Source of the DNA: a candidate division TM6 bacterium GW2011_GWF2_28_16
GTDB lineage: Bacteria; Patescibacteriota; Microgenomatia; UBA1400; PJMF01
NCBI GenBank assembly: GCA_001029715.1
Contig: CP011212.1
Coordinates: 67,407 to 131,406, forward strand
Direction: 5' to 3'
Length of the DNA stretch: 64,000 bases
Shown here: positions 7,499-30,683 of the stretch, piece by piece
How positions within the stretch are numbered: the stretch's first letter is position 1
Layout: each line of letters begins with the position of its first letter
Notes under the pieces: model-generated
What the model was told of the DNA's origin: nothing
What the model saw: only the letters and a program-made list of their open reading frames with translations
Database searches by the model: none
Translations under genes and position numbers: made by a program

Positions 7499-7520
7499 TT
7501 ATTTCTAGATTATATATTTA

Positions 7521-7548
7521 AAAAACCCGCTTTAAAAGCGGGTTTTTT
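7521..7548. terminator. rho-independent terminator (bidirectional palindrome)
   Basis: AAAAA-CCCGCTTT-AA-AAGCGGG-TTTTTT between two minus-strand pilin genes. Confidence 0.7.
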
Positions 7549-7569
7549 ATATTTTCCATAAAATAATGA

Positions 7570-7977: not shown

Positions 7978-8044
7978 AATTTTTTCCTTTTTAATTACTA
8001 AATTAATTTATTATAAATACGATTATATCAAGTTTAGTCAACTT

Positions 8045-8383: not shown

Positions 8384-8395
8384 ATTTTTTCGTTT

Positions 8396-9180: not shown

Positions 9181-9181
9181 A

Positions 9182-9649: not shown

Positions 9650-9679
9650 TTTATATTTTGATTATAAACCATTTATCTA

Positions 9680-10099
9680 TTAAAAACCCATATTAATGCC
9701 GGTTAGAAGTTGAATGATTTGCATAATCCAGTAAGCTGCAAACATAATAATAAAGCCAAGTACAGCAGAAGTCATGGTGGTTTTGGCTTTTTCCGCATCT
9801 TTTCCACCTCCTTGAATCATTGCAAATCCAGCGCCGACAATCATGACAAATAGAACTAAGCCCGCGCCGACAAAGAGTACTTTGACAATTAAATTTAGCA
9901 TGTCATCGGTACTATTAAAAACATCCTTGACTGGCGTGCCGTCTTTGAGAATGAGTTTCTCTCCCAGAGAAATTTCAACTTCTTCTACTTGTGCTGAGCT
10001 AGTAGCCCCAACGGCTAAAGCTAGAGGCGTTTTTATAAAAGAAAAATTAAAGACAAAAGCCGAGAAAAGAAGTAAAAATAATAAAAATTTGTTCTTCAT
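9680..10099 (-). CDS. TrbC/VirB2-like T4SS pilin family protein (paralogue 7, divergent)
   Basis: Signal peptide, two TM helices, loop MIQGGGKDAEKAKTTMTSAVLGFIIMF. Confidence 0.55.
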   Translation of the reverse strand: MKNKFLLFLLLFSAFVFNFSFIKTPLALAVGATSSAQVEEVEISLGEKLILKDGTPVKDVFNSTDDMLNLIVKVLFVGAGLVLFVMIVGAGFAMIQGGGKDAEKAKTTMTSAVLGFIIMFAAYWIMQIIQLLTGINMGF

Positions 10100-14346: not shown

Positions 14347-16206
14347 ATGTTTTTCAGAGATTTTTCTATTTATTTGCAGAAAATTGAGGCAGTTTCTGCT
14401 CGTTTGAGCATTACTGCTATTTTAGCTGATCTTTTTAAGGATCTATCAGTTGGCCAGCAAGATCCAGACGAAATTGTTTTAGCCACTTATCTAATGCAGG
14501 GGAGTTTAGTACCCTCTTATTTATCTTTAGAATTTCAAATGTCAGAAAAAATGTTGATTAAAACTTTGGCAAGAGTTCAGGGCAAAGATAATAATTTTAA
14601 ATCAAACAATTCAGATAATCTTTTTGCAGAAGTGGATCAAAATTTATTTGAGGATCATTCTGTTTTAGAGAAAAAGTTGAGTGTCGAATATAAAAAAATA
14701 GGTGACATTGGTGAACTTTTTGAAAAAGTTTTAACCGAATTTTCATCTGATAAAACTTTGAGTGAGCAGCTTTCAATCACTCAAGTCCATCAATTCTTAA
14801 GTGAACTGGCCACTACTTCTGGACTCGGCTCTCAGGACAAAAAAATTGAATTACTTGCCAATTTACTACAAAAATTAGATCCTCTTTCTGCTCGGTACAT
14901 CAGTCGTATTATTTTAAGCAAAATGCGTCTTGGTTTTTCGACTATGACTCTGATAGATTCACTTTCTTTCGTCAAAAATAATGATAAAAGTGATAGCGCC
15001 AACTTAGAAAGAGCTTTTTTTAAAAAAGCAGATTTAGGTAAGTTGGCTAAGGCTTATTTATTAGATCATAGAGACTTAAATAGTGATGAATTATTGAAAA
15101 CTTATCAAGTGGAACTGGGTGTTCCAGTTTTGCCTGTGCTTTGTCAACGTCTCAATAGCGCTCAAGAAATTATTGAAAAAATGGGTGAAGTGCTTGCAGA
15201 GCCAAAATATGATGGTTTGAGAGTGCAGATTCATATCAACAAGGAAAAATTTGCTGACAGTGGTTTGCTTTATAAAGCTTTTACTAGAAATTTAGAAGAT
15301 GTTACTCATATGTTTCCAGAGTTGGCGGAGGTGGCCTCGGCATTAAAGGTCAAAAATTGCATTTTAGACACTGAGGCAATTGGAATAGATAAAAAAACCG
15401 GCAAGTTTTTATCTTTTCAAGAAACAATTCAGCGTAAGCGTAAACACGACATCTCAGCCAAAGCTCTAGAGGTGCCAATTTGTTTTTATGCTTTTGATTT
15501 GCTTTTGTTAGATGATCAGGTTTTGATTGATCGAGATTTGCTGGCTAGAAAAGCCAAATTAAATGAAGTTTTGAAAGATTCGGAATTTATCAAAAAAACT
15601 GAATATTCTCTGATTAGTGATCCGAGTGAATTAAAATCTTTTCATGAGCAACAACTTAATTTGGGTTTAGAGGGTGCCGTCATGAAACAGGGGAGTTCAG
15701 CCTATATTTCTGGTAGAAAATCTTGGCGTTGGGTCAAAATTAAAGAAGAAGAAGGTAGTCAAGGTAAACTCTCTGATACCATTGATTGCTTGATGCTGGG
15801 TTATTACCTTGGCAAAGGTAAAAGACAAGTTTTTGGAATAGGCGCTTTATTAGTGGGAGTTCTGGATAAAGACAAAGATGGCAATTTAGTGGTTAGATCT
15901 CTTTCCAAAATTGGAACTGGTTTGACTGATGAGCAGTTTCGTGAAGTTAAAAACTTAGCGGATAAATATCCAAGTAAAGATAATCAAAAACCAACTTTGT
16001 ATGATGTCGATAAAAATTTATTTCCTGATGTTTGGCTTGAGCCGCGTTTGGTTTTAGAAATTGCTGCTGATGAAATTAGCAAATCGCCAATTCACTCTGC
16101 AGGAGTAGCTTTGCGTTTTCCAAGATTAGTTCAAATTCGTTACGATAAAAGTTTCGAAAATGCTACTACTCTTGAGGAGTTGTCTTCAATTCATATTGCT
16201 GGCTAA
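14347..16206 (+). CDS. lig: ATP-dependent DNA ligase (LigI-like, three-domain)
   Basis: Motif I AEPKYDGLRVQIH (KxDGxR). Downstream adenylation and OB-fold motifs (EGAVMK.., WVKIK). 619 aa with an N-terminal DNA-binding domain. Confidence 0.85.
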   Translation: MFFRDFSIYLQKIEAVSARLSITAILADLFKDLSVGQQDPDEIVLATYLMQGSLVPSYLSLEFQMSEKMLIKTLARVQGKDNNFKSNNSDNLFAEVDQNLFEDHSVLEKKLSVEYKKIGDIGELFEKVLTEFSSDKTLSEQLSITQVHQFLSELATTSGLGSQDKKIELLANLLQKLDPLSARYISRIILSKMRLGFSTMTLIDSLSFVKNNDKSDSANLERAFFKKADLGKLAKAYLLDHRDLNSDELLKTYQVELGVPVLPVLCQRLNSAQEIIEKMGEVLAEPKYDGLRVQIHINKEKFADSGLLYKAFTRNLEDVTHMFPELAEVASALKVKNCILDTEAIGIDKKTGKFLSFQETIQRKRKHDISAKALEVPICFYAFDLLLLDDQVLIDRDLLARKAKLNEVLKDSEFIKKTEYSLISDPSELKSFHEQQLNLGLEGAVMKQGSSAYISGRKSWRWVKIKEEEGSQGKLSDTIDCLMLGYYLGKGKRQVFGIGALLVGVLDKDKDGNLVVRSLSKIGTGLTDEQFREVKNLADKYPSKDNQKPTLYDVDKNLFPDVWLEPRLVLEIAADEISKSPIHSAGVALRFPRLVQIRYDKSFENATTLEELSSIHIAG

Positions 16207-18100: not shown

Positions 18101-19303
18101 ATGCCCATCCTTCATTTAAATTTTCAAAAAACCAAAAATCTTAAATATATTTATGCAATTCGTCTTGTTCGTGAATTTGCCAATCAACTAATGGTTTTCT
18201 TTTTACCACTTTATTTTTTTAACATTCGTTTTTCCTTCATGAGCCATTTCGACCTATCTCCCCTGCAAGAAGGAATTTTTAACGTAATGATTGTTTTGTT
18301 GTTAACTCGGTTAGTTGCTTTATTTTCTGCCATTCCAATCGCCAAAATACTTAATAAATACGGTATTCGTCATGGTTTTTTGATGGGACATTTGCTGTAT
18401 TCTTTGTTTGTTCTATGTCTTTATCTTTCCAAAGCCAATCCTTATTTAGTTTTAACGGCTGCGATAATTGATGGTTTCCAAATTAATTTCTTTTGGAACA
18501 GTTATTATTATTCTATTAGTCGTAACAGCGACCAAGCAAAAATGGGTGCAAATCTAGGTGCTGTGAATTTTTTACTTCACTTACTAGCAATGATCGCTCC
18601 TGCTTTAGGTGGTTTAATTATTGTGACCTTAGGATATCAGACTTTGTTTTTACTTGGTTTAGTGATTATTCTTAGTGGAGTAATTTTTTCAATTTTACTC
18701 AACAATGTTAAAGTAAAAGATAAAATCTCCTTCAAAGAATTTTTAACTTGGCTTAAAGAGCCTGGATTTAAACGCCTGGCAGTAAGTTTTGCTGGAAAAT
18801 ATTTTAATGATGCTTCTGTTAGTTTGTGGGCACTTTATATGTTCATTTTGCTTGGTAGTACTGAGGGAGTTGGTTATTTATATAGCTTGTCTTTGCTTTT
18901 AGCTTTGCTTGTGAGCTATACGGCTGGTTCTTTTATAGATAAGCACAAAAATCGCAAACAATTCTTTATTTCTGGTGGATTTTTATCGATTTTTTGGGCT
19001 TTGAGGGGCTTTGTTGTTGGCATTTGGTCAATTACTATTTTAAATGCAGTCGACAGACTAACCTCAAGTTTTCACTGGTTATTTTTTGATCGTAGCTGGA
19101 TTCTGCGAGGCAAAGGTCGTGAAGCCCTTTCCTATTTTGTTTATCGAGAAATGATCTATTCTTTTGCAGCCATAGTTTTTTGGCTTATAGTGGCAATTTT
19201 ATTTTATTTCTTTGTTTTTGCTTGGAAGAGTTTGTTTATTGTTGCCGGAATGGGTGTTCTTTTAACTTTGCTAGTCAAAGAGCATCAAGGAGAAAGCAAT
19301 TAA
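18101..19303 (+). CDS. polytopic membrane transporter (MFS-like)
   Basis: 400 aa with ~10-12 predicted TM helices in two halves. No specific substrate motif. Confidence 0.45.
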   Translation: MPILHLNFQKTKNLKYIYAIRLVREFANQLMVFFLPLYFFNIRFSFMSHFDLSPLQEGIFNVMIVLLLTRLVALFSAIPIAKILNKYGIRHGFLMGHLLYSLFVLCLYLSKANPYLVLTAAIIDGFQINFFWNSYYYSISRNSDQAKMGANLGAVNFLLHLLAMIAPALGGLIIVTLGYQTLFLLGLVIILSGVIFSILLNNVKVKDKISFKEFLTWLKEPGFKRLAVSFAGKYFNDASVSLWALYMFILLGSTEGVGYLYSLSLLLALLVSYTAGSFIDKHKNRKQFFISGGFLSIFWALRGFVVGIWSITILNAVDRLTSSFHWLFFDRSWILRGKGREALSYFVYREMIYSFAAIVFWLIVAILFYFFVFAWKSLFIVAGMGVLLTLLVKEHQGESN

Positions 19304-20337
19304 AATTTCCTGGAAAAATTATATTCAAGAATTTCTTTTAAAAGGAGATTCATCTCTTTAGGCTCTATTTCTGCGATTTCAACTTGAGCTTTTTTCTTAA
19401 ATTGATTAAGTAATTTTTCAATTTTTGTTTGGGCGAATTGTCTAAAAAGATTTTGAATTTTGATGATTTCTTCTTTGCTAAGATTTTTTTGTCCATATTT
19501 TGCCATTAAAAACTCTTTTTCTGATGGAGGAATTTCCTCTAGTAGAGTTAAATAGAAAAGTGTCTTCTTACCCTCTCTAATATCAGAGGCAAAACTTTTG
19601 CCAGAAAGCTCTTCCGGAGTAAAAATGCTGATAGAATCATCCACTATTTGGAAGATTAAGCCGAGCTTTTCACCGATTTTTTCAAGTTGTGTGATTTCCT
19701 CATCTTTTAATTCATTGATTAGTCCAGCTAATTTCAATGGAAGAGAAAAAGTATAGCGAGCTGTTTTGAAAAGATACATTTCTAAGACTTCATCAAAACT
19801 TGGAAGTTCTTTTTGCGAGGTAATTTTGCTATCTAACATTTCTGCAAAATTAGTTTTAATGATTTCTTCTGAAATAGTTGGAAGAATATTTGTTTCTCTT
19901 AATAAAGAAATAGCTAGGAAATTTGCAATGTTGGCAAGGCAAATCGCTTGGTTTTGCCCATATTCTTTAGGATTCTGATAGTTTTCTCTTTCAGCATCCA
20001 ATTCATATTGATACCAAATTGAATTTTGACCACGGCGCTTCTTATCTTGGTCAATAATATCGTCATGGATGAGTAGGCTTGAGTGAATTAATTCTAATGC
20101 GGCGGCAATCTTTAGAAGTTTTTTTTGTTCTGTTTGATATTTTTTTTCATCAAGAGATTTGACGGCAAGTAAAAAAAGTCCGCCGCGCACAGTTTTACCA
20201 CTGATTACAAAATCTTTAATTTTGCTAAAAGCATCTTTCACCAAGCTTTGTTTTTCAAATTTCTTTTCTTCCTCAGAAAGAAAAGAGAGTAGAAAATTAT
20301 CAATGAGTTGTTTTTCTTCTTGTAATTTTTCTATCAT
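19300..20337 (-). CDS. polyprenyl diphosphate synthase (trans-isoprenyl diphosphate synthase, IspA/GGPPS family)
   Basis: First aspartate-rich motif LIHDDIID and second motif FQIVDD. 345 aa. Confidence 0.85.
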   Translation of the reverse strand: MIEKLQEEKQLIDNFLLSFLSEEEKKFEKQSLVKDAFSKIKDFVISGKTVRGGLFLLAVKSLDEKKYQTEQKKLLKIAAALELIHSSLLIHDDIIDQDKKRRGQNSIWYQYELDAERENYQNPKEYGQNQAICLANIANFLAISLLRETNILPTISEEIIKTNFAEMLDSKITSQKELPSFDEVLEMYLFKTARYTFSLPLKLAGLINELKDEEITQLEKIGEKLGLIFQIVDDSISIFTPEELSGKSFASDIREGKKTLFYLTLLEEIPPSEKEFLMAKYGQKNLSKEEIIKIQNLFRQFAQTKIEKLLNQFKKKAQVEIAEIEPKEMNLLLKEILEYNFSRKF

Positions 20338-21011
20338 TTTAAGATTTTTTCTATTGTTGCTTCTGCCAAAATAGCCATGGAATCAAAAATTTCTGTTCCA
20401 GCATATATTGGAGTTAATAGTTGCAGATCAGTGCAAGCTAAAACAACATGTTTAATATCTTTCTTTGCAAATTTCTGAATAATTTTAATTAACTCAGTCT
20501 GATCTTTTTCACTGTATCTACTGCGAACTAAATTGTTAATTAGTTGGCCAATTTTCTCCTGATCTTTTTCTATGGGTAAATGAATTTTAATATCTTTTAA
20601 ATTGTACAAATTTGTCTTGATGGTTGGATTTGTTGCCAATAAAGCGATCTCTTTAATATCTCTTTTTTTAAGAAATTTCTCTGTTTCTTCAACAATGCTT
20701 AAAACTGGGATTTTAACAACTTGACGCACAGCATCAATGGCTAAGTGTACGGAATTGCAGGGAATCACAATAAAGTCTGCGCCGCCATTCTCCAATCTTT
20801 TAGCTGCATCTTGGAGATATGGAATATATTTTTCAAATCCCTGAGCTTTAGTAATAAAATCTTGTTCAAGCTGATATTCTAGAGGAATGCTCCAGATCAG
20901 CACAGGTGGTCTCTTTTTTTTATTTTTTTCAAAACTAGAAAAAATCAGTTTTAAATAAAATTCAGCCGTAGTTTCTGGTCCCAATCCACCAATGATTCCC
21001 GTAGTCTGCAT
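20334..21011 (-). CDS. aspartate/glutamate racemase family protein
   Basis: N-terminus MQTTGIIGGLGPETTAEFY typical of Asp racemase. 225 aa. Confidence 0.7.
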   Translation of the reverse strand: MQTTGIIGGLGPETTAEFYLKLIFSSFEKNKKKRPPVLIWSIPLEYQLEQDFITKAQGFEKYIPYLQDAAKRLENGGADFIVIPCNSVHLAIDAVRQVVKIPVLSIVEETEKFLKKRDIKEIALLATNPTIKTNLYNLKDIKIHLPIEKDQEKIGQLINNLVRSRYSEKDQTELIKIIQKFAKKDIKHVVLACTDLQLLTPIYAGTEIFDSMAILAEATIEKILK

Positions 21012-21099
21012 AGCTTGTCTATTTTATAACTAAAAAATCCAGATTGCCATGTAAATTCTTTGCATGATTTTTTTTGTTTTTTACGACTATTAGAGTGTA

Positions 21100-22278
21100 A
21101 TGTCATTTTTTAAGAAAAATATTCAAATGCAAAATGATGAGCAAGCAATTGCTTCTCGTCAAGAAGACTTGCTAAAGAATTGGAAAAAGGCTGATTTTAA
21201 GCAGCTTTTTTCTATCAACAAAGCACTGAGCAAAGCCAACCAATGCAATTGTGAAAATATGATTGGCGCAGTTACTTTACCGGTTGGTTTGGCTGGTCCA
21301 GTTAAAGTTATTTTAGAAGACAGCGAAACTGAATATTTTGTGCCCCTAGCAACTAGTGAGGGCGCTTTAGTTGCTAGCGTAAATAGGGGTTTAAAAGCAA
21401 TTAATCAAGCTGGCGGAGCTCAAGTTTTTGTCAAAAATGTTGGCATGACTAGAGCTCCAGTTTTTGCTTTTGAAAATGGCAAAGAAGCTTTTGCTTTTGC
21501 TACTTATTTGGAAGAAGCCAAAACTTTGGCGGAAATAAAAAAGATTACTGAACTAAGCAGCGATCACCTCCATTTTAAAAATCTCCAGAGTTTTGTCAGA
21601 GGTCGTAATGTCTATGTACGTTTTAGTTTCTTCACTGATCAAGCCATGGGCATGAACATGGTTACCCTTGCCCTTCAGAAATTGTGGGAAGAATTTTTGA
21701 GTAATTATCAGGGTATAAAAATGTTGGCTTTATCTAGTAATGTTTGTACTGATAAAAAATCTTCATTTATCAATCAATTACTTGGTAGAGGCTATAGTGC
21801 TCAGGCTGAGGTTTTTTTAAGTGAAGCAATTTTGGAAAATATTCTAAAAACTAGTTCTAAGGCTTTGTTTAAAACCCATCAAAGCAAAAATCAAATTGGT
21901 TCAAATCTAGCCGGGACTTTTTCTAACAATATGCAATTTGCCAATGTGGTGGCAGCTTTTTATATGGCTACTGGTCAAGATTTGGCTCATATCACTGAGG
22001 CAAGTCAAGGTAATACAATCGTCGAGGAAACTGAAGAAAAAGGCCTTTATTTTGCAGTTAACTTACCAGATTTGCCGCTTGGCAGTGTTGGTGGTGGAAC
22101 TAACTTGCCCGCTCAAAAAGAGTTGCGCAACTTAATTCATCAAAGTAACGAAGACCTAGGCTCAGTGCAACTAGTTAGTATTTTAGCGACTGGCGTTTTG
22201 GCAGCGGAAATTTCTGGTTTGGCAGCTCTTAGTAGTAATAGCCTAGCCCAGGCCCACCAAAGATTGGCAAGAAAATGA
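21100..22278 (+). CDS. hmgA: hydroxymethylglutaryl-CoA reductase, class I
   Basis: ENMIGAVTLPVGLAGPV, LATSEGALVASVNRG, DQAMGMNMV and GSVGGGT motifs of the class-I catalytic domain. Confidence 0.85.
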   Translation: MSFFKKNIQMQNDEQAIASRQEDLLKNWKKADFKQLFSINKALSKANQCNCENMIGAVTLPVGLAGPVKVILEDSETEYFVPLATSEGALVASVNRGLKAINQAGGAQVFVKNVGMTRAPVFAFENGKEAFAFATYLEEAKTLAEIKKITELSSDHLHFKNLQSFVRGRNVYVRFSFFTDQAMGMNMVTLALQKLWEEFLSNYQGIKMLALSSNVCTDKKSSFINQLLGRGYSAQAEVFLSEAILENILKTSSKALFKTHQSKNQIGSNLAGTFSNNMQFANVVAAFYMATGQDLAHITEASQGNTIVEETEEKGLYFAVNLPDLPLGSVGGGTNLPAQKELRNLIHQSNEDLGSVQLVSILATGVLAAEISGLAALSSNSLAQAHQRLARK

Positions 22279-23345
22279 AAACAAATCAAGTCGGCATAGT
22301 TGCCTATGGTGCAGCTATTCCAAGACACAAGGTTTCCACTAATATTATTGCTCAAAGTCAGGGTAAAAATGCTGATGTGGCTAAATCTTTGGGTGTTTTT
22401 TCAAAAACTATTCCAAGTTTAGATGAAGATACAGTGACTCTTTCTACAGAAGCAGGCAAAATTGCTTTGGATAGATTTTTATTAAATAAGGGCGCAGTCA
22501 AAAATATCGAAACTCTTTTTATTGGTAGCGAAAGTCATCCTTATGCTGTCAAACCATCTGGCACAGTAGTCAAAGAAGCTCTTGGTTTAAGCAACTATTT
22601 AAGTATGGCTGATCTACAATTCGCTTGCAAAGCTGGTTCTCAGTCTCTGCAAATCGCTGCAGCTTATGTTCAGGCAAAAATGGTTAAAAATGCCATGGCA
22701 ATTGGTGCAGATACTGCCCAAGCTCGTCCTGGAGATGCTCTAGAATATACTGCGGCGGCGGGCGCCGCCGCCTTCATCCTTGGTCATGAAGCGAATAGCG
22801 ATCAATTATTAGCTCGCTTATCAGCCACTAAATCAGTAGCAACTGATACGCCAGATTTTTGGCGCAAACCAAAAGAATCTTATCCGCAACATTTTGGCAG
22901 ATTTACTGGCGAGCCGGCTTATTTCAAGCATGTTTTGATGGCCAGTAGTGCGCTTCTTGCAGAAACAAAGTTGAAGCCAGCAGAAATTGATTTCTGCGTT
23001 TTTCATACGCCAAATGCCAAGTTTCCAGAGCAAGCCGCTAAAATACTTGGATTTACCAAAGAGCAATTAGCTCCATCTCTAGTCGTTAAAGAAATTGGTA
23101 ACACTTATGCCGCTGCTTCACTTTTAGCTCTAACTGCAGTTCTTGATGTCGCTCATGCTAGTGCTAAAATTTTGGTTTGTTCTTATGGTTCTGGTTCGGG
23201 GGCTGATGCTTTTTTGTTTGAAACAACTAAGAATTTGGAAACACAGAGAGTAAAGTATAAAAAAACTCTAGCAGCCCAAATTGCTGCTTTGGAAGCAATT
23301 GATGCTGAAACTTATCAAAAAATGAGGACTGACAATGAACATTAA
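22275..23345 (+). CDS. hydroxymethylglutaryl-CoA synthase (archaeal-type)
   Basis: Thiolase-fold condensing enzyme of ~350 aa. N-terminus QVGIVAYGAAIPRHKV. Sits between HMGR and the thiolase/DUF35 pair as in archaea. Confidence 0.8.
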   Translation: MKTNQVGIVAYGAAIPRHKVSTNIIAQSQGKNADVAKSLGVFSKTIPSLDEDTVTLSTEAGKIALDRFLLNKGAVKNIETLFIGSESHPYAVKPSGTVVKEALGLSNYLSMADLQFACKAGSQSLQIAAAYVQAKMVKNAMAIGADTAQARPGDALEYTAAAGAAAFILGHEANSDQLLARLSATKSVATDTPDFWRKPKESYPQHFGRFTGEPAYFKHVLMASSALLAETKLKPAEIDFCVFHTPNAKFPEQAAKILGFTKEQLAPSLVVKEIGNTYAAASLLALTAVLDVAHASAKILVCSYGSGSGADAFLFETTKNLETQRVKYKKTLAAQIAALEAIDAETYQKMRTDNEH

Positions 23346-24444
23346 AGTAATTGGCAATTACATTGGTAAATTTGCTGAGCTTTGGGAACAGAGCTTAACT
23401 GATTTGATTAAAGAAGGAGTAGAGGGCGTTTTAGCTGATGCGCAAATTGATCCAAAATCAATTGATGCGATTTTTGTAGCCAATAAAGCTAGTGGTAGTT
23501 TTAATAATCAACGTCATTTAGGTGCTTTAGTGAGTGAGCAATTTGCTCATTTTCCTCCAGCAATGCGCATTGAGGGCGCTTGTGCTTCGGGTGGTTTAGC
23601 TATGCTAGCTGCGGAGCAAGCCTTACTCAGCGGTGTTTATAAAACAGTTTTAGTGCTCGGAGTAGAGAAAATGACTGATGTCTCTGGTTCGGAAACAGCA
23701 GCTATTTTAGCGACTGCAGCTAGTCGAGAGAAAGAATATGGCTCTACTTTCCCAGCCCTCTATGCGATTTTGGCCAATTATCACATGAATAAATACGGCA
23801 CTACCAGAGAGCAGTTATCTAGTGTAGTGGTTAAGAACCACTTACACGCCTTCGATAATCCTAAAGCCCAGTTTCATAAGAAATTTACTTTAGAAGATGT
23901 TGCCAATTCTGCCATGGTCGCTTCGCCTTTGCGCTTGTTAGATTGTTCACCAATTAGCGATGGAGTAGCTGCCGTCATTCTTAGCAGTAAACCTTCTTCT
24001 CGCAAAGCTAAAATTCTTGGTTTTGGACATGGCCAAGATACTTTGGCACTTGCCGATCGCCAAGATTTAGGCAGATTGGCTGCGACAGAAAAAGCAGCCA
24101 AACAAGCGTTCTTAATGGCCAAATTGAGTCAGACAGACATTCAAGTGGCAGAAGTTCATGATTGTTTCAGTATTGCTGAAATTTTGGCAGTGGAAGACTT
24201 AGGCTTCTTTGCCAAAGGAAAAGCCGCCGCCGCCATTGCTAAAGGCAAAGCTACTTACGGTGGGCAAATAGTTATCAATCCTTCCGGCGGCCTCAAAGCT
24301 TGTGGGCATCCAGTTGGAGCGACCGGAGTGAAGCAAATTGCTTTTTTGGCTAATTTAATTGAAAAAGGAAAATTTGAACGAGTTCTAGCTCATAATGTTG
24401 GCGGCAGTGGAGCAACCGCGGCTGTAAATATTTTAGGAATATAA
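23335..24444 (+). CDS. acetyl-CoA C-acetyltransferase (archaeal-type/SCP-x-like thiolase)
   Basis: Catalytic Cys context EGACASGGLAM. C-terminal GH.VGATG. 369 aa. Confidence 0.8.
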   Translation: MNIKVIGNYIGKFAELWEQSLTDLIKEGVEGVLADAQIDPKSIDAIFVANKASGSFNNQRHLGALVSEQFAHFPPAMRIEGACASGGLAMLAAEQALLSGVYKTVLVLGVEKMTDVSGSETAAILATAASREKEYGSTFPALYAILANYHMNKYGTTREQLSSVVVKNHLHAFDNPKAQFHKKFTLEDVANSAMVASPLRLLDCSPISDGVAAVILSSKPSSRKAKILGFGHGQDTLALADRQDLGRLAATEKAAKQAFLMAKLSQTDIQVAEVHDCFSIAEILAVEDLGFFAKGKAAAAIAKGKATYGGQIVINPSGGLKACGHPVGATGVKQIAFLANLIEKGKFERVLAHNVGGSGATAAVNILGI

Positions 24445-24446
24445 AT

Positions 24447-24740
24447 ATGAATATAACGGAGTATTGGCGCTCAAACAAACAATGGTCTAAATATCTTGGC
24501 AAAAAAGCCAAGGTTTTAGCTGTTTCATTGATGGAAGTGGCGGCTTCAGATCAAACTGCGCTTTTGCCTTATTCTTATTTGCTCCTAGATTTAGAGAAAA
24601 GTAAAATTTCTTTGATGGGTGCTGCTCATCAAGAATTTAAAATTGGTGATGAGGTAGAAATTGTTTTGCGCAAAATTAAAAAAGAGGCTCAGGAAGAGAT
24701 AATCGTTTATGGTCTCAAAGCGGAAAAAATTTATGTCTAG
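24447..24740 (+). CDS. DUF35 OB-fold protein (scaffold of the thiolase/HMG-CoA synthase complex)
   Basis: 97-aa OB-fold-like ORF immediately after the thiolase, as in archaeal mevalonate operons. No Zn-ribbon cysteines. Confidence 0.55.
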   Translation: MNITEYWRSNKQWSKYLGKKAKVLAVSLMEVAASDQTALLPYSYLLLDLEKSKISLMGAAHQEFKIGDEVEIVLRKIKKEAQEEIIVYGLKAEKIYV

Positions 24741-25599
24741 TTTTTACAGTGGCAAAGTTATTTTAAGTGGGGAACATAGCGTGGTTTATGGCTATCAGGC
24801 TGTTCTGGCGAGCTTGGATTTAGGAATTTCTTGTATTGCTAAAGAAGGCTCTTTGAGTCATGAGCAAAAAAGTGATCTATATCTACAGCACATTCTAGAG
24901 ATGTTTTCTAAGCTTGCACAAATTAAAGAAATTCAGTTAGCACTTAAAATTAAATCGAATTTGCCTCAAAAATCAGGTCTTGGTTCTTCAGCGGCTTTTG
25001 CAGCAGCAGTTTTTTCAGAGTTGGCAGATTTTTATAATTATTCACTCAACCAAGATCGCCTCTACAAATTGGTTTTAGAAGCAGAAAATTTTATTCATGG
25101 TCGTTCCAGCGGAGCTGATCCAGCGATTGTTGTTTATGGTGGCTTAATTGCTTTTAGTCAAGGTAAAGTAGAGCATTTGCCAGATTTAGCCTTGGCAAAG
25201 AAAAGTTTTTTCTTAATTGATTCTGGAATTGCTGATGAATCCACTGGTGAAATGGTGGCTAAAGTTGCTGCTAATAAGTCTAGCCGGCCATTTATAGATG
25301 AAATTGGCGGAATTAGTCAAAAAATGATAGTTGATTTAAAGAATAGTTTCTTCAATCCTCAACTTTTGAATGAAAATCAAGCACTTTTAGAAGAAATTGG
25401 CATAATTGCTGATTCAGTGAAAGACACTATTCGCCAATTACAAAAGTTAGGTGCTTTTTGTAAAATTACTGGAGCAGGCGGACTGAAGAGTGGCTCTGGT
25501 TTTATTTTAGCTTTTCACCAAAATGAAGCAAACTTTGAGCAAAATTTAAAAAATATGGGTTTGAGTTTTTTCAAAACCCAACTAGGAAATACGAAATGA
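24709..25599 (+). CDS. mvk: mevalonate kinase-like GHMP kinase (paralogue 1)
   Basis: N-terminus GKVILSGEHSVVYG and ATP-binding SGLGSSAAFAAAV (GHMP motif 2). Confidence 0.75.
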   Translation: MVSKRKKFMSSFYSGKVILSGEHSVVYGYQAVLASLDLGISCIAKEGSLSHEQKSDLYLQHILEMFSKLAQIKEIQLALKIKSNLPQKSGLGSSAAFAAAVFSELADFYNYSLNQDRLYKLVLEAENFIHGRSSGADPAIVVYGGLIAFSQGKVEHLPDLALAKKSFFLIDSGIADESTGEMVAKVAANKSSRPFIDEIGGISQKMIVDLKNSFFNPQLLNENQALLEEIGIIADSVKDTIRQLQKLGAFCKITGAGGLKSGSGFILAFHQNEANFEQNLKNMGLSFFKTQLGNTK

Positions 25600-26585
25600 A
25601 AAAAGTGAAGACTTCTGCCCCAGGAAAATTGATGCTTTTTGGTGAACATAGTGTGGTTTTTGGTCATCCTTGTATTGTGACTGCCGTTGATCGTCGTTTA
25701 TCAATTACTGTTGAGGAAAATGGCGAAGAAGTTTTTATTTTAGATGCGCCAGATTTGGGTTTACGAGCTTATTCTAAGCGAATTTGTGATCTTGGTAATA
25801 AAGATTTGCCAAAAGAAGTTAGCTTTATCGAAACTTGCTATAAGCTATTTTTGGAGAAATACCCACAACAAAAAACTATTCATGTTTATAGCAAGAATGA
25901 ATTCAAATCTTCTTATGGTCTTGGTTCAAGTAGTGCTAGCACAGTGGCTTTTGCTAAAGCTTTAAGTGAGTTTTATGAAGTGCCAATGAATAATGATCAG
26001 TTGTTCGATTTGGCTTATCAGACTGTTTTAGAAGTGCAGGGTGTGGCTTCTGGTTTTGACATTGCAGCTGCAATTTGGGGTGGAACGATTTATTACATCA
26101 CTCCTCATGGCAAACTTAGTAAACATAAAACTGTCGAACCAATCAAAATCAAAAACTTGCCTTTGTTAGTTGCCTATACTGGTATTAAAGCTGATACTGC
26201 CACCTTAATTCGAATGGTGCAAAATTTGCACAGTGAAAACAAAGGAACAGTTAATCACATTTTTACCGATATTACTCTTTTGGTAGAACAGGCTAAAAAG
26301 ACTCTTCAACAGCAAGACTGGCCACATCTTGGCTTATTAATGGATGAGAACCAAGCTTTACTACGTAAATTGCAAATTAGTAGCATTGAGCTAGAGAATC
26401 TCATCGCTGCTGGCAAAAGTGCCGGAGCAATGGGAGCCAAGCTCTCTGGAGCTGGAGGCGGTGATTGTATGTTAGCTTTAGTTGATGAAGCTGAGAAAAA
26501 AGCCGTTGCTCAAGAAATTACCAAGGCTGGTGGTAAAATTATTGAGGTGGAGATGAATGCGGAGGGCGTACGTTTGGAAAACTAA
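25596..26585 (+). CDS. mevalonate kinase-like GHMP kinase (paralogue 2; possible phosphomevalonate kinase substitute)
   Basis: APGKLMLFGEHSVVFG, YGLGSSSASTVAFAKAL and C-terminal KLSGAGGGDCMLAL (GHMP motif 3). Confidence 0.7.
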   Translation: MKKVKTSAPGKLMLFGEHSVVFGHPCIVTAVDRRLSITVEENGEEVFILDAPDLGLRAYSKRICDLGNKDLPKEVSFIETCYKLFLEKYPQQKTIHVYSKNEFKSSYGLGSSSASTVAFAKALSEFYEVPMNNDQLFDLAYQTVLEVQGVASGFDIAAAIWGGTIYYITPHGKLSKHKTVEPIKIKNLPLLVAYTGIKADTATLIRMVQNLHSENKGTVNHIFTDITLLVEQAKKTLQQQDWPHLGLLMDENQALLRKLQISSIELENLIAAGKSAGAMGAKLSGAGGGDCMLALVDEAEKKAVAQEITKAGGKIIEVEMNAEGVRLEN

Positions 26586-26694
26586 GTTTCGAGCCAGAGA
26601 TCGCTTGAATAAATACATTTTTTCACGCGCTCAAATGTCTCTAAACTTAGTTTTCCAAAACGTACTTTATTTAATTAAGCAAATTGAAAAAAAT

Positions 26695-27693
26695 ATGAAA
26701 AAAACAACGGTTCAAGCAGGTAGTGATATCGCTTTTGTTAAGTATTGGGGCAAAAAGGATAAAATCCTACGTTTACCAAGCAATGGTAGTATTTCCATGA
26801 TTTTAGATTCTTTGCAGAGCAAAACTACTGTCGAGTTTTTGCCAAATTTAGCTAAGGATGAGATCATAATAGGTGGCGAAGTTGAAGAGGGAGAGGCTTC
26901 TCGTGCCATTAAACATTTGGACAGAATTAGAACTTTAGCCAAAGAAAAAGGATTGATAGATAAAGATATTTTTGCTAAAGTCGTTTCGGAGAATAATTTT
27001 CCCAAGAGCACTGGTCTTTCTAGCTCTGGTTCTGGTTTTGCTGCTTTGACCATGGCTGCCACTAAGGCTATTGGTTTAGATCTTTCAGAAAAAGAATTGT
27101 CTATTTTAGCCAGGCAAGGATCTGGCTCTGCCTGTCGCTGTGTTTGTGGTGGTTTTGTTGAGTGGTTAGATGGTGAAACTTCTGAAGAATCTTATGCACA
27201 AAGCTTTGCTAAGTCAGAAGATTTTGATATTAGAGATTTAGTGGCGATTGTTTCAGAAGATAAAAAGAATTTAAGCTCAAGTGATGGACATGATTTAGCA
27301 GAAAGCAGTTTGTTTTTTAAGGCTCGTCAAGAAAAAATTGATACCAAGTTAGCAGCTGTCAAAAGAGCAATTTTACAAAAAGACTTTGAAACCCTAGGTG
27401 AAATAGTAGAAGCCGAGGCTTTAGAGTTTCACTCAATTTTATTAACCAGTCAGCCAACTATCTTGTTGTTTTATCCGGGAACGATTGAGGTGATGCAGGC
27501 TGTTCGTCAATTGCGTAAGACTGGTGTGCCAGTTTATTTCACTATTAATACCGGCTTCAATGTCCACATTTTGACTTTACCTCAATATGAGAAACAGGTA
27601 GCTGCTGTTTTGCAAAATTTACCAAGTGTGCAGAAAATTATTATCTCAGGAGCAGGTAATCAGCCAGAATATTTAGAAAAACATTTGTTTTAA
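26695..27693 (+). CDS. mvaD: diphosphomevalonate decarboxylase (or phosphomevalonate decarboxylase)
   Basis: SDIAFVKYWGKKD...LPSNGSISM N-terminal signature and GHMP fold. Start placed at the in-frame ATG 26695 (MKKTTVQAG) rather than the overlapping 26557 of the raw ORF. Confidence 0.8.
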   Translation: MKKTTVQAGSDIAFVKYWGKKDKILRLPSNGSISMILDSLQSKTTVEFLPNLAKDEIIIGGEVEEGEASRAIKHLDRIRTLAKEKGLIDKDIFAKVVSENNFPKSTGLSSSGSGFAALTMAATKAIGLDLSEKELSILARQGSGSACRCVCGGFVEWLDGETSEESYAQSFAKSEDFDIRDLVAIVSEDKKNLSSSDGHDLAESSLFFKARQEKIDTKLAAVKRAILQKDFETLGEIVEAEALEFHSILLTSQPTILLFYPGTIEVMQAVRQLRKTGVPVYFTINTGFNVHILTLPQYEKQVAAVLQNLPSVQKIIISGAGNQPEYLEKHLF

Positions 27694-28109
27694 AAACTTG
27701 GTGTCGAACTGCGACTGGCTTCGTATTGCTTAACTACTTCTTGGCAGTAAATATATTTGCCATATTCAAAAGCTTTTTCAGAAATATTTTGCTCGCCATT
27801 TTCGTCAACTCTGACGGCCTCTTGGACAAATTCTTGAGCAACTCCACCAGCCTCTTTGGCTTTTTCTGTCAAAATCTTAATTTGTGAAACACCATTTTCA
27901 CCTAAATTTTTAAAGTCTTCTTGCTTGAAATCAATTTGATCAAATTCAATTTCTTTATCTTTTTGCCAGGGAAGAGTGATACTTTTTGGGAGGCCTTCTT
28001 CTATTTTGGAAAAAATTTCATTATTAAGCCAACCTTTGTTTTTGGCAAATTTATAGGCAAAAACAACTAGAGCTATGGCGATAATAATGGTAAACAATTT
28101 GCGAAGCAT
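27690..28109 (-). CDS. hypothetical membrane-anchored protein
   Basis: 139 aa with an N-terminal TM helix and an acidic soluble domain. No recognisable domain. Confidence 0.4.
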   Translation of the reverse strand: MLRKLFTIIIAIALVVFAYKFAKNKGWLNNEIFSKIEEGLPKSITLPWQKDKEIEFDQIDFKQEDFKNLGENGVSQIKILTEKAKEAGGVAQEFVQEAVRVDENGEQNISEKAFEYGKYIYCQEVVKQYEASRSSTPSF

Positions 28110-28185
28110 GCTTTTATTTTAGCATGCTTTAAGGAGCGGCTGTGCACCCTGCGGGTACTACCCAGGTTTGCTTTGCAAACTTGGC

Positions 28186-28261
28186 GGTGCGTGTGCTAGG
28201 ACTCGAACCTAGAACCGCCAAGGTATAAGCTTGGAGCTCTAACCAATTGAGCTACACACGC
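28186..28261 (-). tRNA. tRNA-Ile, apparent anticodon UAU
   Basis: Manual cloverleaf from the reverse complement: acceptor GCGTGTG/CACACGC, D-arm GCTC-AATTGGTTA-GAGC, anticodon stem CCAAG/CTTGG with loop CTTATAC (U33-UAU-A37), T-arm CTAGG-TTCGAGT-CCTAG. Discriminator A then CC; terminal A not encoded. Confidence 0.75.
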
Positions 28262-28303
28262 GTTGATTTGTGTCAGGGGTAGATTTTACTAAATTTATTG
28301 ACT

Positions 28304-29287
28304 TTATAGAAGTAGTAGCAAGAGTGCGCCAACGCCTAGGGCTCCAAGGCCAGCTTTAATGTAGTTCATCCAATCAGCTGGGCCACTTTCAGTAGGAACG
28401 TTGATTGGGCGCACGATGGTGGTTTCACCATTTGCTAATTTGCATTGACTATCTGTAGGATTGACGTCGAGGCGACATTGACCGCTGTAACAAATATGAC
28501 TAATGTTGCTACAGTCAGCATTGGCATTACAAGTTTCGTTGCAGCCAACAGTGGTAATAACGGTGGTAACAGATGGAGTTGGAGTGCTGGTAGCGGTCAC
28601 AGTAGTAGTTGGAGTTACGGTTGTAGTTACAGTAGTGGTTGGAGTAACAGTTGTAGTAACGGTTGGAGTAACAGTTACGGTTGCTTCACAACAAGTTGTG
28701 CTACTAGGATCGGCGACACATTCATCGAGATAATCTTCATCTGCACAGTATTTAACAATGTTTCCATCGCCATCAGTATCTGAAGTAGAAATACAAACAT
28801 AACCATCTTCGCAGTCATCGCTGTTGGTACAGTCTTTTTCACCACAAGAAAGCAAGTTTTCTTCTGGAGCGGTGCAACAAGAGTCAGTGTTTGGATCATC
28901 TATACAGGCTGTTTTATAATCTTCATCTGCACAATATTTATTGCCATTGTCGGCCTCAATACAAATTAAATTACTGCTACAGTCATCGTCACTTTCGCAA
29001 CCACTCAAACCACAGGTAATTTTATCTGGTTCTGTAACTGTAAATTCAAGAGTACAAGTTTGAGTTTTTTCAATATAAGCAGCTGGCTGAGATTGAGGGG
29101 CAGTTGGGGCGACTGGAGTAGTGTCTTGTTTTTGCGTAATTAAGAAAACACTAACTGCGCCACCAACAAAAATTAGTAGACCCAGCAACATAGCGATCAC
29201 TTTAAAATCGCCTTTTTTCTTCAGAGCAGTTTGTCCTTGCTTTGATTTTACGTAGGTCGCTGGTGTTTCAATTTGTTCTATGTTCAT
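28304..29287 (-). CDS. Cys-rich, Thr-repeat cell-surface protein with N-terminal signal anchor and C-terminal hydrophobic tail
   Basis: N-terminal TM helix. Two copies of a Cys-rich module (C..SGCESDDDCSSNLICIE...KYCADEDY..C..DP....CC). Thr/Val/Pro repeat TVTPTTTVTTTVTPTTTV. C-terminal GLGALGVGALLLLLL. Confidence 0.6.
   Translation of the reverse strand: MNIEQIETPATYVKSKQGQTALKKKGDFKVIAMLLGLLIFVGGAVSVFLITQKQDTTPVAPTAPQSQPAAYIEKTQTCTLEFTVTEPDKITCGLSGCESDDDCSSNLICIEADNGNKYCADEDYKTACIDDPNTDSCCTAPEENLLSCGEKDCTNSDDCEDGYVCISTSDTDGDGNIVKYCADEDYLDECVADPSSTTCCEATVTVTPTVTTTVTPTTTVTTTVTPTTTVTATSTPTPSVTTVITTVGCNETCNANADCSNISHICYSGQCRLDVNPTDSQCKLANGETTIVRPINVPTESGPADWMNYIKAGLGALGVGALLLLLL
28560..28685. 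repeat. imperfect tandem ~24-30-bp coding repeats (Thr/Val/Pro linker)
   Basis: Direct repeats GTTGGAGTAACAGTTGTAGTAACG / GTTGGAGTTACGGTTGTAGTTACAGTAGTG inside the minus-strand surface-protein gene. Confidence 0.6.
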
Positions 29288-29291
29288 TATT

Positions 29292-30683
29292 TTAATTCAC
29301 ATTATCTATCATTGTGCTTGGTGAATTATCCACCATTTCCCAAACTTGGCATTCCGTTCCCCAGCAAATACGACCCTGGACAACGTAATCTCCAAAGCTT
29401 GAAATGGTGTAGGAATCAGATACATTTTTAGCAATTGCGCCACTAGTGTCAGTTAGATCTATCCAAGAGCTCATGCCTGGAGCCCAGATTCTAAATTCAT
29501 AATTAAAGTCAACTCCTTGGTTGCCGACAGCAGTGCAACGGAAGCGCACCTCATCTCCGTCCTTGAGACTATCATCATCGTTTGCTTCCATAGTATTGTT
29601 ATTAGCATCTAGCATATCTATGCTGGCACAAACTGGCATAGCCTGGCTTTCACAACAATTGGCAGTGCTTGGATCAGCTGCGCAAAACAATTGATTTTCT
29701 CCTTTGGCACAAATACCAGTCGATTGAGAGTCGACTGTTACTGTTTGACAAGTAAGACCATTTTGACAGTCAGAATTTTGAGTACAACCAATCACTCCGC
29801 AGGCTAAAAGTTCTGGAGGTGTAGTAGGAGTTGGAGTAGGTGTTCTATTTGGAGGATTAGTTGGAGTAGGGGTTGGTGTGGCGCAATCTGAACAATCAGC
29901 TCCAGCATCACCGCATAAAGCATCACAACTTGAGGCACTGCCTATCACCCACCAGCCAGCGCTACATTGGCAACGCATTAAGCCAGATTCTTCACAGTTT
30001 TCGATTACTGAAGTATTTGGATTGTCGCACCAATCTCCGCCCATGGATTGTTCTGTGCACGGATCTTGATCGGTAACGTAACCGCACATGGTATCGCCAT
30101 TGGCGATTATTCTACAGGTAGTACTAACACATGGTCCACCAGCTACGAGTCTATGCAGATTTGGACCGCAGGCCGCCACAGTTGTGGTTGGAGTAACGGT
30201 CGAACCACCCGTGGGTGTACAGGCACCATCAATTACACGATAGCCAGTAATACATCTTCCACTAGTACCATTACAATATGGATCTCCTTCCATACACATC
30301 TCACTGGCTTGTTGGCGGTTGTCTTGATTTTGTCTGCTAAGTATATAACTAGAAAAAACCCCAACTACCAAGAAAAAAACTATAAGTAAGCCAGCCAATT
30401 TATTATTTGATTTCTTTTTCACTTGAAAAGATGGTTTTTGATCAGTTGAAAGTGGATTTTGAATAGAAACAGTTTCAGCACCTGACTTAACTGCCTCTTT
30501 GAGAGGTTCATTATCTGTAATTGTATTACCGCGATATTCTGGTATTTCTGGTTCTTTAGCAAGATCATTCCAAGGGGAATCAATTTTTTCTGGTTCTTTA
30601 ACAAAGTTATCGGAAGAATCCTCTGCCTTGTCTATCTGGCTTTTTTTATATTTAGCTGGTATAAAATCTCTAGGATTATTCAT
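29292..30683 (-). CDS. Cys-rich secreted/surface protein with PT-rich linker
   Basis: N-terminal signal anchor (LAGLLIVFFLVVGVFSSYIL), numerous Cys, PTPTPTNPPNRTPTPTPTTP linker. 463 aa. Confidence 0.6.
   Translation of the reverse strand: MNNPRDFIPAKYKKSQIDKAEDSSDNFVKEPEKIDSPWNDLAKEPEIPEYRGNTITDNEPLKEAVKSGAETVSIQNPLSTDQKPSFQVKKKSNNKLAGLLIVFFLVVGVFSSYILSRQNQDNRQQASEMCMEGDPYCNGTSGRCITGYRVIDGACTPTGGSTVTPTTTVAACGPNLHRLVAGGPCVSTTCRIIANGDTMCGYVTDQDPCTEQSMGGDWCDNPNTSVIENCEESGLMRCQCSAGWWVIGSASSCDALCGDAGADCSDCATPTPTPTNPPNRTPTPTPTTPPELLACGVIGCTQNSDCQNGLTCQTVTVDSQSTGICAKGENQLFCAADPSTANCCESQAMPVCASIDMLDANNNTMEANDDDSLKDGDEVRFRCTAVGNQGVDFNYEFRIWAPGMSSWIDLTDTSGAIAKNVSDSYTISSFGDYVVQGRICWGTECQVWEMVDNSPSTMIDNVN

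Follow-up and report, generated by a model that had tools for sequence, protein, structure and literature searches.

A mevalonate-pathway operon in a Microgenomates bacterium with a proposed non-canonical phosphomevalonate kinase and an unusual decarboxylase active site

A mevalonate pathway in bacteria of the Candidate Phyla Radiation (CPR) was reported earlier, from phylogeny alone (Hoshino & Gaucher, 2018, Mol Biol Evol 35:2185; PMC6107057). That study classed the late enzymes as MVK (for mevalonate kinase), PMVK (for phosphomevalonate kinase, here PMK) and DPMD (diphosphomevalonate decarboxylase, here DMD, elsewhere also MDD), placed the CPR MVKs close to archaeal MVKs, and found the cluster syntenic with a cis-prenyltransferase gene. 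It also noted that isopentenyl phosphate kinase (IPK) is frequent beside the gene for the type-1 isopentenyl diphosphate (IPP) isomerase, IDI-I, and present in some CPR genomes, and that genes of the methylerythritol phosphate (MEP) pathway are sparse (PMC6107057). Here we examine such a cluster in a 64,000-nt stretch of contig CP011212.1, deposited as candidate division TM6 bacterium GW2011_GWF2_28_16; we call the whole stretch the window, and all positions are window coordinates. The organism belongs to the group analyzed by Hoshino & Gaucher, and the gene content is identical to that of their cluster: an archaeal-type thiolase, HMG-CoA synthase (HMGS) and class-I HMG-CoA reductase (HMGR), two GHMP kinases, a DPMD homolog and IDI-I. 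The arrangement that a first-pass annotation of this DNA had put forward as notable is of the CPR type and is already in the literature. We are concerned here with the enzymes themselves, above all the second kinase and the decarboxylase.

The cluster consists of seven plus-strand open reading frames (ORFs) at 21100–27693, all verified at the positions given here, and every gene family that the first-pass annotation had listed was confirmed with Pfam or NCBIfam models or with a family profile. They encode an HMGR of class I (NADPH type; 21100–22278), an archaeal-type HMGS (22275–23345), an archaeal-type acetoacetyl-CoA thiolase (23335–24444), a 97-aa OB-fold protein of the DUF35 family that lacks a Zn-ribbon and is presumed to be a thiolase/HMGS scaffold (24447–24740), a first kinase that we call K1 (288 aa, 24733–25599), a second kinase, K2 (329 aa, 25596–26585), and an ATP-dependent mevalonate (di)phosphate decarboxylase homolog of a CPR clade (332 aa, 26695–27693). 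Neighboring genes are spaced by −4, −11, +2, −8 and −4 bp, and the sole wide gap is 109 bp before the decarboxylase. Our reading, which we consider reasonably likely, is that this is a co-transcribed operon for isoprenoid precursors that encodes a hybrid mevalonate pathway, with K1 an MVK, K2 a PMK and the decarboxylase a DMD. Thiolase and HMGS, joined by the truncated DUF35 protein, would make HMG-CoA, which HMGR would convert to mevalonate; K1 would form mevalonate 5-phosphate. K2, which differs only slightly from archaeal-type MVKs and has acquired PMK-type motifs II and III, would form mevalonate 5-diphosphate (MVAPP). The decarboxylase, kin of the phosphomevalonate decarboxylases (PMDs) of Chloroflexi but with a DMD-type Lys20, would then yield IPP, to be consumed by the isomerase Idi, the cis-prenyltransferase UppS and a polyprenyl synthase encoded elsewhere in the window.

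The two kinases had been described as mevalonate-kinase-like paralogs standing in for a canonical PMK. Much of this holds: both carry the MVK N-terminal signature (a GHMP_N domain and GEHSVV), both score best on MVK models, both are labeled ‘mevalonate kinase’ by GenBank and JGI, and no protein attains any curated PMK threshold. Each also retains a complete MVK catalytic set (Lys8, His15, Ser85 and Asp129 in K1; Lys11, His18, Ser111 and Asp155 in K2). Since these match the catalytic residues of Methanosarcina mazei MVK, Lys9, His16, Ser135 and Asp138 (PMC6283576), both kinases look active. The residues do not serve to tell K1 from K2 by function, because Lys, Ser and Asp are also kept by PMKs. 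The paralogs are not equivalent, however. They are only 27% identical, and PMK-type motifs and PMK-leaning scores are found in K2, whereas K1 retrieves MVKs only.

K2 reads KLSGAGGGDCM at motif III, and the Asp of this motif (Asp290, codon at 26463–26465) is the PMK-type state: the K2-family proteins (120/120) share it with all five reference PMKs, while ten of twelve reference MVKs have Gly there and those of Legionella and Bernardetia align differently. K2 also has a PMK-like (Y/F)G(L/F)GSS segment (SYGLGSS in the window) and a DIAAAIWGG segment. The best annotated matches of K2 are Streptomyces PMKs, ahead of MVKs (32% identity over 98% of the length). Its family scores 80–112 bits on the archaeal PMK model Arch_PMK, where six genuine MVKs reach 21–53 and a true Streptomyces PMK reaches 68; on TIGR01220 the family scores 94–131 against 34–97 for MVKs, and on a PMK hidden Markov model (HMM) built for this analysis 104–140 against 24–99. 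Profile against profile, K2 scores 292 with PMKs, compared with 213 and 136 for the archaeal and bacterial MVK profiles. A structural model of K2 (pLDDT 88.8) gives its best TM-score among matches of the MVK/PMK family, 0.88 with an rmsd of 2.8 Å, to 3K17, confirmed as the Listeria PMK ortholog; TM-scores to archaeal MVKs are 0.79–0.82.

Several observations count against calling K2 a PMK. At 197.7 bits (198–206 across its family) it exceeds the curated MVK cut-off of TIGR00549 (163.05), and it falls below every curated PMK cut-off: TIGR01220 (130.8 bits; cut-off 165.7), TIGR01219 (23; cut-off 377) and Arch_PMK (111.6; cut-off 500). The low end of the K2-family range on TIGR01220 overlaps the Methanocaldococcus jannaschii MVK (97). 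Its closest relatives overall are archaeal MVKs, by sequence (124 bits, versus 76 for the Listeria PMK) and by profile (376 versus 292), and archaeal MVKs also come first when fold matches are ranked by E-value. Motif I is of MVK type, GEHSVV rather than GEYAV, and the insertions of PMKs (about 4 aa before motif II and about 18 aa after the SGxD strand) are lacking. A bootstrapped neighbor-joining tree, which contained no Sulfolobales, Asgard or eukaryotic PMKs, groups PMKs, K2 and archaeal MVKs at 70% support; within that group the placement of K2 has only 22–50% support, which leaves it unplaced between archaeal MVKs and PMKs. Neither kinase thus clusters firmly with ERG8-type PMKs, the outcome that would have made this a standard pathway. 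Judged by sequence, K2 is best described as an MVK/PMK intermediate, and the ‘missing’ PMK is most likely K2 in a non-canonical form. We assign MVK to K1 and PMK to K2 with moderate confidence.

K1 appears to be a divergent MVK of bacterial type. It shares AExxxHGxxSGxD with bacterial MVKs, its tblastn search against annotated replicons returned MVKs only, and its family profile matches bacterial MVKs (279) and archaeal MVKs (251) ahead of PMKs (170). The top 20 structural matches of its model (pLDDT 91.7) are all MVKs, and PMKs first appear at rank 22, below a galactokinase. On PMK models K1 scores 52 (TIGR01220) and 24 (Arch_PMK) with no match to TIGR01219, all below the cut-offs. One point weighs on the other side: on TIGR00549, where genuine MVKs score 219–308 bits and a true PMK 96, K1 reaches 158.7 bits and its orthologs 153, short of the 163.05 cut-off. 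The K1 family has an insertion of its own in motif III, containing Lys/Arg in most members (GAGG-xKxG-SG), which in the window is the four-residue GAGG-LKSG-SG (25483–25494). K1 lacks both the PMK-type motif III Asp and the aromatic-GLGSS segment.

These data bear on an exchange of roles, in which K2 is the archaeal-type MVK and K1 the PMK. Such an exchange would accommodate the MVK-level score of K2 on the curated model, its archaeal MVK best matches by sequence and E-value-ranked fold, and the sub-threshold K1 family (153–159); the basic insertion of K1 sits in the active-site glycine loop and could bind a phosphorylated substrate, and CPR MVKs are close to archaeal MVKs in the earlier phylogeny (PMC6107057). 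We nonetheless consider it unlikely. K1 has no PMK-specific feature, its PMK-model scores (24–62 bits) equal those of ordinary MVKs, the searches by sequence and structure described above bring MVKs first, and the PMK-type Asp of K2 is invariant. The suggestion that the second kinase might be a mevalonate 3-kinase (M3K) found no support, nor did a mevalonate 3-phosphate 5-kinase (M3P5K): residues and fold of both kinases are those of MVK-like 5-kinases, the MVK catalytic set is present in each, and M3Ks themselves fall in the branch of the decarboxylases, where the M3K model gives 40 bits with the window decarboxylase. Synteny in Chloroflexi, with neighboring kinases at one of 80 Anaerolineae PMD loci, did not show which CPR kinase is the ortholog of the Chloroflexi MVK. 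For the MVK of that locus the scores are 233 with the bacterial MVK model, 163 with K2 and 106 with K1.

The decarboxylase is a clear member of its family, with 255.1 bits on the DMD model TIGR01240 (cut-off 171.35). On the PMD model NF040704 (MvaD) it remains below the cut-off (197.7 bits versus 475), as it does on models for Thermoplasma-type enzymes, M3K (39.8; cut-off 440) and MBD, the decarboxylase of mevalonate 3,5-bisphosphate (69.9; cut-off 560). Its ATP-binding and catalytic residues Ser110, Arg148, Lys190 and Ser195 are intact, as is Lys20. PMD specificity has been switched to DMD specificity by mutagenesis (Thomas et al., as noted by Aoki et al.), and two exchanges, YWG(N to K) and G(H to M), separate the engineered structure 6N0Z from the Anaerolinea thermophila PMD 6N0X. 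A ‘conserved lysine of DMD’ and a ‘conserved histidine of PMD’ have likewise been used as markers (PMC11052028).

Inspection of these residues, which the first-pass annotation had proposed for separating MDD from PMD, gave a mixed answer. At the lysine position (Lys20 of YWGK, 26752–26754) the CPR enzymes are in the DMD state: Lys is found in 123 of 124 and in all MDD references, compared with Asn, Asp or Glu in 81 Anaerolineae enzymes and Leu in the haloarchaeal ones. Other features speak against a DMD. The histidine position (His199) is in the PMD state, with His in 124/124 CPR and 79/81 Anaerolineae enzymes and Met in classical MDDs. The equivalent of Arg192, which in the Enterococcus faecalis MDD touches the pyrophosphate of MVAPP (PMC7414129), is Ser or Thr in CPR, as in PMDs; in the window it is Ser, and the segment Ser196 to His199 (S-D-G-H, 27280–27291) thus combines the replaced Arg192 equivalent with the PMD-type His in place of the DMD Met. 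The nearest solved relative is 6N0X itself (271 bits, 43% identity; classical MDDs reach about 200 bits). Enzymes of Legionella and Bernardetia that are annotated as DMD also have both Lys and His, so the His alone is not diagnostic.

A route through PMD is the alternative raised by these features: the decarboxylase would act on mevalonate 5-phosphate, with isopentenyl phosphate then phosphorylated by an IPK elsewhere in the genome or by a GHMP kinase, or it would be a bifunctional PMD/DMD. The similarity to the Anaerolinea PMD is consistent with this, as are the grouping of the CPR clade with the Anaerolineae enzymes (62% bootstrap; 39–51% identity versus 34–38%), the invariant PMD-type His and the loss of the Arg. 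IPK homologs occur in some CPR genomes (PMC6107057), and dual activity has been ascribed to a Chloroflexota enzyme (PMC11052028). On the other side stand Lys20, seen in 0/81 Anaerolineae and neither haloarchaeal enzyme, and the annotated DMDs with the same Lys–His pair. The PMD route also would leave two conserved GHMP kinases superfluous, and the Anaerolineae locus with genes for MVK, IPK and PMD has only one. No IPK is found in the window, beside idi or in four related CPR loci. We know of no GHMP-family isopentenyl phosphate kinase. Together these points make the PMD route quite improbable in our judgment.

The Anaerolineae locus just mentioned comes from the metagenome-assembled genome H24_340, where a compact MVK–IPK–PMD operon occupies positions 2213–4963 of the locus; none of the remaining 79 Anaerolineae loci has another gene of the mevalonate pathway within 10 kb of the PMD gene. 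The single GHMP kinase, the IPK and the Lys-less PMD of this operon, with Asn at the Lys20 position, lie in a row, whereas at CPR loci a Lys-bearing enzyme goes with two GHMP kinases and no IPK. This co-variation of kinases, IPK and Lys favors the diphosphate route in CPR, where the enzyme may yet have dual specificity.

The IPK searches covered the window in several ways. Neither the AA_kinase family nor MEP enzyme families occur among window ORFs of at least 100 aa, and only noise came from six-frame segments of the window when they were searched by tblastn, using a validated haloarchaeal IPK, and with an HMM built from two IPKs; in the four related CPR loci no IPK signal was seen. Within this genome the search spans 64 kb of 853 kb, a limit that weighs against the diphosphate reading, as does the fact that biochemical work on CPR enzymes of this pathway did not turn up in the literature searched. 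As a by-product, the ‘acetylglutamate kinase’ gene that follows mvk in Natrinema thermotolerans (5975–6709 of the locus examined) proved to be a misannotated IPK (NF040647 175 bits; cut-off 120).

The most striking deviation in the decarboxylase, one that the earlier annotation had passed over, concerns its catalytic Asp. In the published view, DMD, PMD and MBD enzymes all conserve the motif-III Asp. At the Asp position of T(M/L)DAGPN, however, all 124 CPR enzymes have Asn (TINTGFN), and 89 of 90 non-CPR enzymes have Asp. In the window this is Asn285 (AAT, 27547–27549), where the motif TMDAGPN has become TINTGFN; its equivalents are Staphylococcus epidermidis D283, E. faecalis D282, Sulfolobus solfataricus D281 and A. 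thermophila D280. A reciprocal change accompanies it: in place of the conserved Asn in HTNIALIKYWGK, 124/124 CPR enzymes carry Asp (Asp11 in the window; GAT, 26725–26727), and 85/90 others have the Asn. In a profile–profile alignment (97.9% probability), the Asp11 position aligns with the strictly conserved motif-I Lys of MVKs, a residue that pairs with the MVK catalytic Asp.

What these exchanges might do can be gauged from other enzymes. Chen et al. (2020) place the Asp 3.3 Å from the 3′-oxygen of the substrate and beside a metal, and favor a role in orienting the hydroxyl by hydrogen bonding and in the later elimination and decarboxylation steps (PMC7414129). Changing D281 of the S. solfataricus DMD to Thr or Val turns the enzyme into an MVAPP 3-kinase, while D281N keeps DMD activity; natural M3K lacks the catalytic Asp, and the equivalent Asp-to-Asn change in the Picrophilus torridus MBD, D309N, is inactive (PMC9254496), the last of which speaks against activity here. 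Asn285 could supply the hydrogen-bonding part of the Asp role, toward the substrate 3′-OH, and Asp11 would compensate from another position in the active site. From the Asn-to-Asp exchange at position 11 and its alignment with the MVK motif-I Lys, we propose that the pocket keeps one carboxylate in a relocated position. The Asp11 position is the one that we take to be human MDD Asn17, presumably 2.8 Å from the carboxylate-binding Arg161. The CPR enzyme is most likely a DMD with a non-canonical active site. That it is instead a 3-kinase only, with IPP made by another enzyme or the pathway non-functional, is very improbable: the universal Asn285, the Thr and Val variants, the Asp-less M3K and the inactive MBD variant would suit it, but D281N retains decarboxylase activity, the M3K model gives 40 bits where the DMD model gives 255, no second DMD homolog, MBD, M3P5K or UbiD-type decarboxylase is found in the window (nor such decarboxylases in the related loci), and the strict conservation of the whole cluster beside Idi and UppS argues for a working IPP route.

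The eukaryote-type mevalonate pathway is thought to have arisen through two transitions, PMD to DMD and MVK to PMK. The CPR lower pathway might hold transitional enzymes of both: K2 would be a PMK that has barely diverged from an archaeal-type MVK, and the decarboxylase would take mevalonate 5-phosphate and 5-diphosphate alike (Lys20 with His199) and have a rearranged catalytic pocket, its carboxylate moved from the motif-III position (Asn285) to the motif-I position (Asp11). We put this forward tentatively, as a possibility that may hold but probably does not. Were it true, it would contradict the published conservation of the motif-III Asp in all decarboxylases of the family.

The upper half of the pathway is archaeal in type, as the first-pass annotation held for the whole. 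HMGR matches PF00368 (343 bits) and the class-I model TIGR00533 (335.8 bits, below its 441.8 cut-off), compared with 33.7 bits on the class-II model TIGR00532. HMGS passes both archaeal models, NF003274 (411.8 bits; cut-off 244) and TIGR00748 (371.7; cut-off 353), and scores only 108 on the bacterial model TIGR01835. The thiolase reaches 417 bits on NF004720 (cut-off 420) and 380 bits on NF053570, a Methanothermococcus acetyl-CoA acetyltransferase model. The label ‘archaeal-style’ does not extend to the lower half, which has the bacterial/eukaryotic layout: two GHMP kinases and an ATP-dependent decarboxylase, with no IPK found in the window.

The 97-aa protein has no direct Pfam match on its own. 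An exhaustive search yielded a family of 69 cluster representatives, nearly all 95–105 aa long, and the profile of 65 members matches the DUF35 subunit of PDB 6ESQ (chain E, E=1.7e-14), covering only residues 48–128 of its 130, that is, the OB fold; 52 of the 65 members match PF01796. The ORF contains no Cys at all, and the four-Cys N-terminal Zn-ribbon (PF12172) is accordingly lacking, in agreement with the first reading of it as a DUF35 protein without a Zn-ribbon. The adjacency of the thiolase and DUF35 genes is kept in orthologous operons. By analogy with the archaeal complex, thiolase and HMGS are probably held together by this truncated OB-fold protein.

The isoprenoid genes expected elsewhere in the window are all three there. 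A type-1 (Nudix) IPP isomerase gene, idi (5863–6435, plus strand; annotated in GenBank as IPP isomerase), encodes a NUDIX-domain protein whose top models are those of the type-1 isomerase, below cut-off (NF002995 103.5 bits, cut-off 127; TIGR02150 78 bits). It is followed by uppS (6432–7109, plus strand), a cis-prenyltransferase gene whose product matches PF01255 (229 bits) and TIGR00055 (228 bits; cut-off 110) and is an IPP consumer. Divergently upstream of the operon lies a gene for a trans-polyprenyl diphosphate synthase (19300–20337, minus strand; PF00348, 170 bits), which is in the same position in two relatives (L001 and L002). Beside Idi–UppS, six small membrane proteins, several of the T4SS_pilin family, are encoded in a row on the minus strand (7136–10099). 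This row also flanks the mevalonate genes in L012, L013 and an 834-kb JGI contig.

The trio of K1, K2 and decarboxylase genes is found again in Woesebacteria, in other Pacebacteria and in further Microgenomates, as a rule together with Idi and UppS, which argues that the arrangement is not due to chance; no AA-kinase (IPK) gene was found in those neighborhoods. Acquisition of the cluster as an accessory island by recent transfer found no support: the GC content of the operon (34–42%) does not leave the range seen elsewhere in the window, and flanking genes are syntenic in other Microgenomates. The window is otherwise typical of CPR, with T4SS-pilin-like proteins, DUF4012 and an ATP-dependent DNA ligase. 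That ligase, of the archaeal/eukaryotic type with three domains (14347–16206), has the same neighborhood in L001 and L013. Variants of the cluster were also noticed. A SAM-methyltransferase gene lies between K1 and K2 in the Pacebacteria locus L013 (8145–8936), and in the 834-kb JGI contig the interval from Idi to K2 has only two ORFs of about 71 aa and no called K1, while a second Nudix-like ORF stands between K2 and the decarboxylase. Proteins of the window (24447–26585 and 5863–6435) are 100% identical under Candidatus Pacebacteria GW2011_GWF2_38_9 (UT13_C0001G0067) and ‘candidate division TM6 bacterium’ (US01_C0001G0067). It seems that the same genome carries two taxonomic labels, which could be one reason why AACT and HMGS of Dependentiae (TM6) have been reported to cluster with CPR homologs.

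Gene models in the operon were adjusted by comparison with orthologs. The K1 ORF as listed began at 24709, and its start was set to 24733 (288 aa); that of the decarboxylase was set to 26695 (332 aa) rather than giving 378 aa. The 378-aa GenBank model has an upstream extension (26557–26694) that opens at an ATG overlapping K2, while close orthologs are all 332 aa long and begin at the equivalent of 26695. The 378-aa model is probably wrong, and so are the database labels that make both K1 and K2 mevalonate kinases. The AT-rich spacer between K2 and the decarboxylase (26586–26694, 109 bp, plus strand, GC 0.30) has no counterpart in relatives, with a 3-bp gap in the related locus L001. No further copies of it occur within the window, and it was dismissed as a repeat element. 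A scan of 20200–28400 for promoters and terminators gave counts equal to or below shuffled expectation and is thus uninformative on operon boundaries.

Other features of the window lie outside this pathway. Directly downstream of the operon region is a tRNA-Ile gene with anticodon TAT (UAU) on the minus strand (28186–28261; ARAGORN and Rfam, 71.7 bits). In most bacteria AUA is decoded by a lysidine-modified CAU tRNA, and a genomic UAU isoacceptor is uncommon. Next, on the minus strand at 28304–30683, are two genes for secreted or membrane-anchored proteins (327 and 463 aa) with Cys-rich repeats (C..SDDDC..C..C) and linkers rich in Thr/Pro; neither is assigned to a family, and relatives have both genes downstream of their operon as well (in L001, ORFs of 333 and 472 aa). 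Two family-2 glycosyltransferase genes (39773–40678 and 41844–42746) share a nearly identical stretch of about 100 aa (VSVVIV.KNR.NDLTHCLGSLLSQSIVLDQLILIDNNSTDKTKEIFSNFAKNSQIPCKYVLEKRKGYPTVYNRGLKEAKNTWVAFIDDDCVADVDWY), which points to a recent internal duplication. They lie within a low-GC (26–30%) glycan-biosynthesis island at about 34–50 kb of the window that also encodes Wzy-like ligases, an epimerase, WecG and a DegT aminotransferase.

Within the literature searched, three features of the cluster are new: the clade-wide (124/124) Asn at the ‘invariant’ Asp of the decarboxylase with the reciprocal Asn-to-Asp change, the combination of DMD and PMD marker residues in one enzyme, and a database ‘mevalonate kinase’ with invariant PMK-type motifs. 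These enzyme-level deviations come from sequence analysis alone. If the enzymes are active as proposed, they would offer natural tests of the debated role of the catalytic Asp, as general base or as promoter of phosphate elimination, and would bear on the origin of the classical pathway from a PMD/IPK route. The cluster may therefore be a useful system for testing the mechanism and the origin of the classical mevalonate pathway. For annotation there is a more immediate consequence: calls of pathway completeness in CPR that need a canonical PMK will report a false gap.

Compared with known systems, the cluster is closest to the CPR cluster of Hoshino & Gaucher, from which it departs in having no IPK beside idi in this genome; that study does not discuss active-site residues, and the Asn285/Asp11 pair, the Lys–His combination and the mixed motifs of K2 are not reported there. 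From the archaeal thiolase/HMGS/DUF35 complex of Methanothermococcus thermolithotrophicus (PDB 6ESQ/6ET9), all three components are encoded side by side here; unlike the subunit of that complex, the CPR DUF35 protein is about 97 aa long, with no Cys and no N-terminal Zn-ribbon. The Thermoplasma-type pathway (M3K, M3P 5-kinase, MBD) resembles this one in having a DMD homolog without the catalytic Asp, M3K, but the CPR residue is Asn rather than Thr, both GHMP kinases have an MVK-type active site, and MBD, M3P5K and IPK are not present in the window. Among decarboxylases, those of the Chloroflexi/haloarchaeal route (MVK, the PMD 6N0X and IPK) come closest to the CPR enzyme, which has the motif S-(S/T)-x-G-H in common with them; it differs from those PMDs in having Lys for their Asn, Asp or Leu, and Asn for their catalytic Asp. 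The classical mvaK1–mvaD–mvaK2 operon of Enterococcus, Staphylococcus, Listeria and Streptomyces shares with it the same GHMP folds and the DMD-type Lys in YWGK. The order here is K1–K2–decarboxylase, however, and K2 lacks the PMK insertions and GEY and is about 30% identical to PMKs. In the CPR decarboxylase Met gives way to His, Arg192 to Ser/Thr and the catalytic Asp to Asn, and the upper pathway is archaeal in type in place of the thiolase II, bacterial HMGS and class-II HMGR of the classical set. For all these differences, the three steps that we propose for K1, K2 and the decarboxylase are the same as those of the classical operon.

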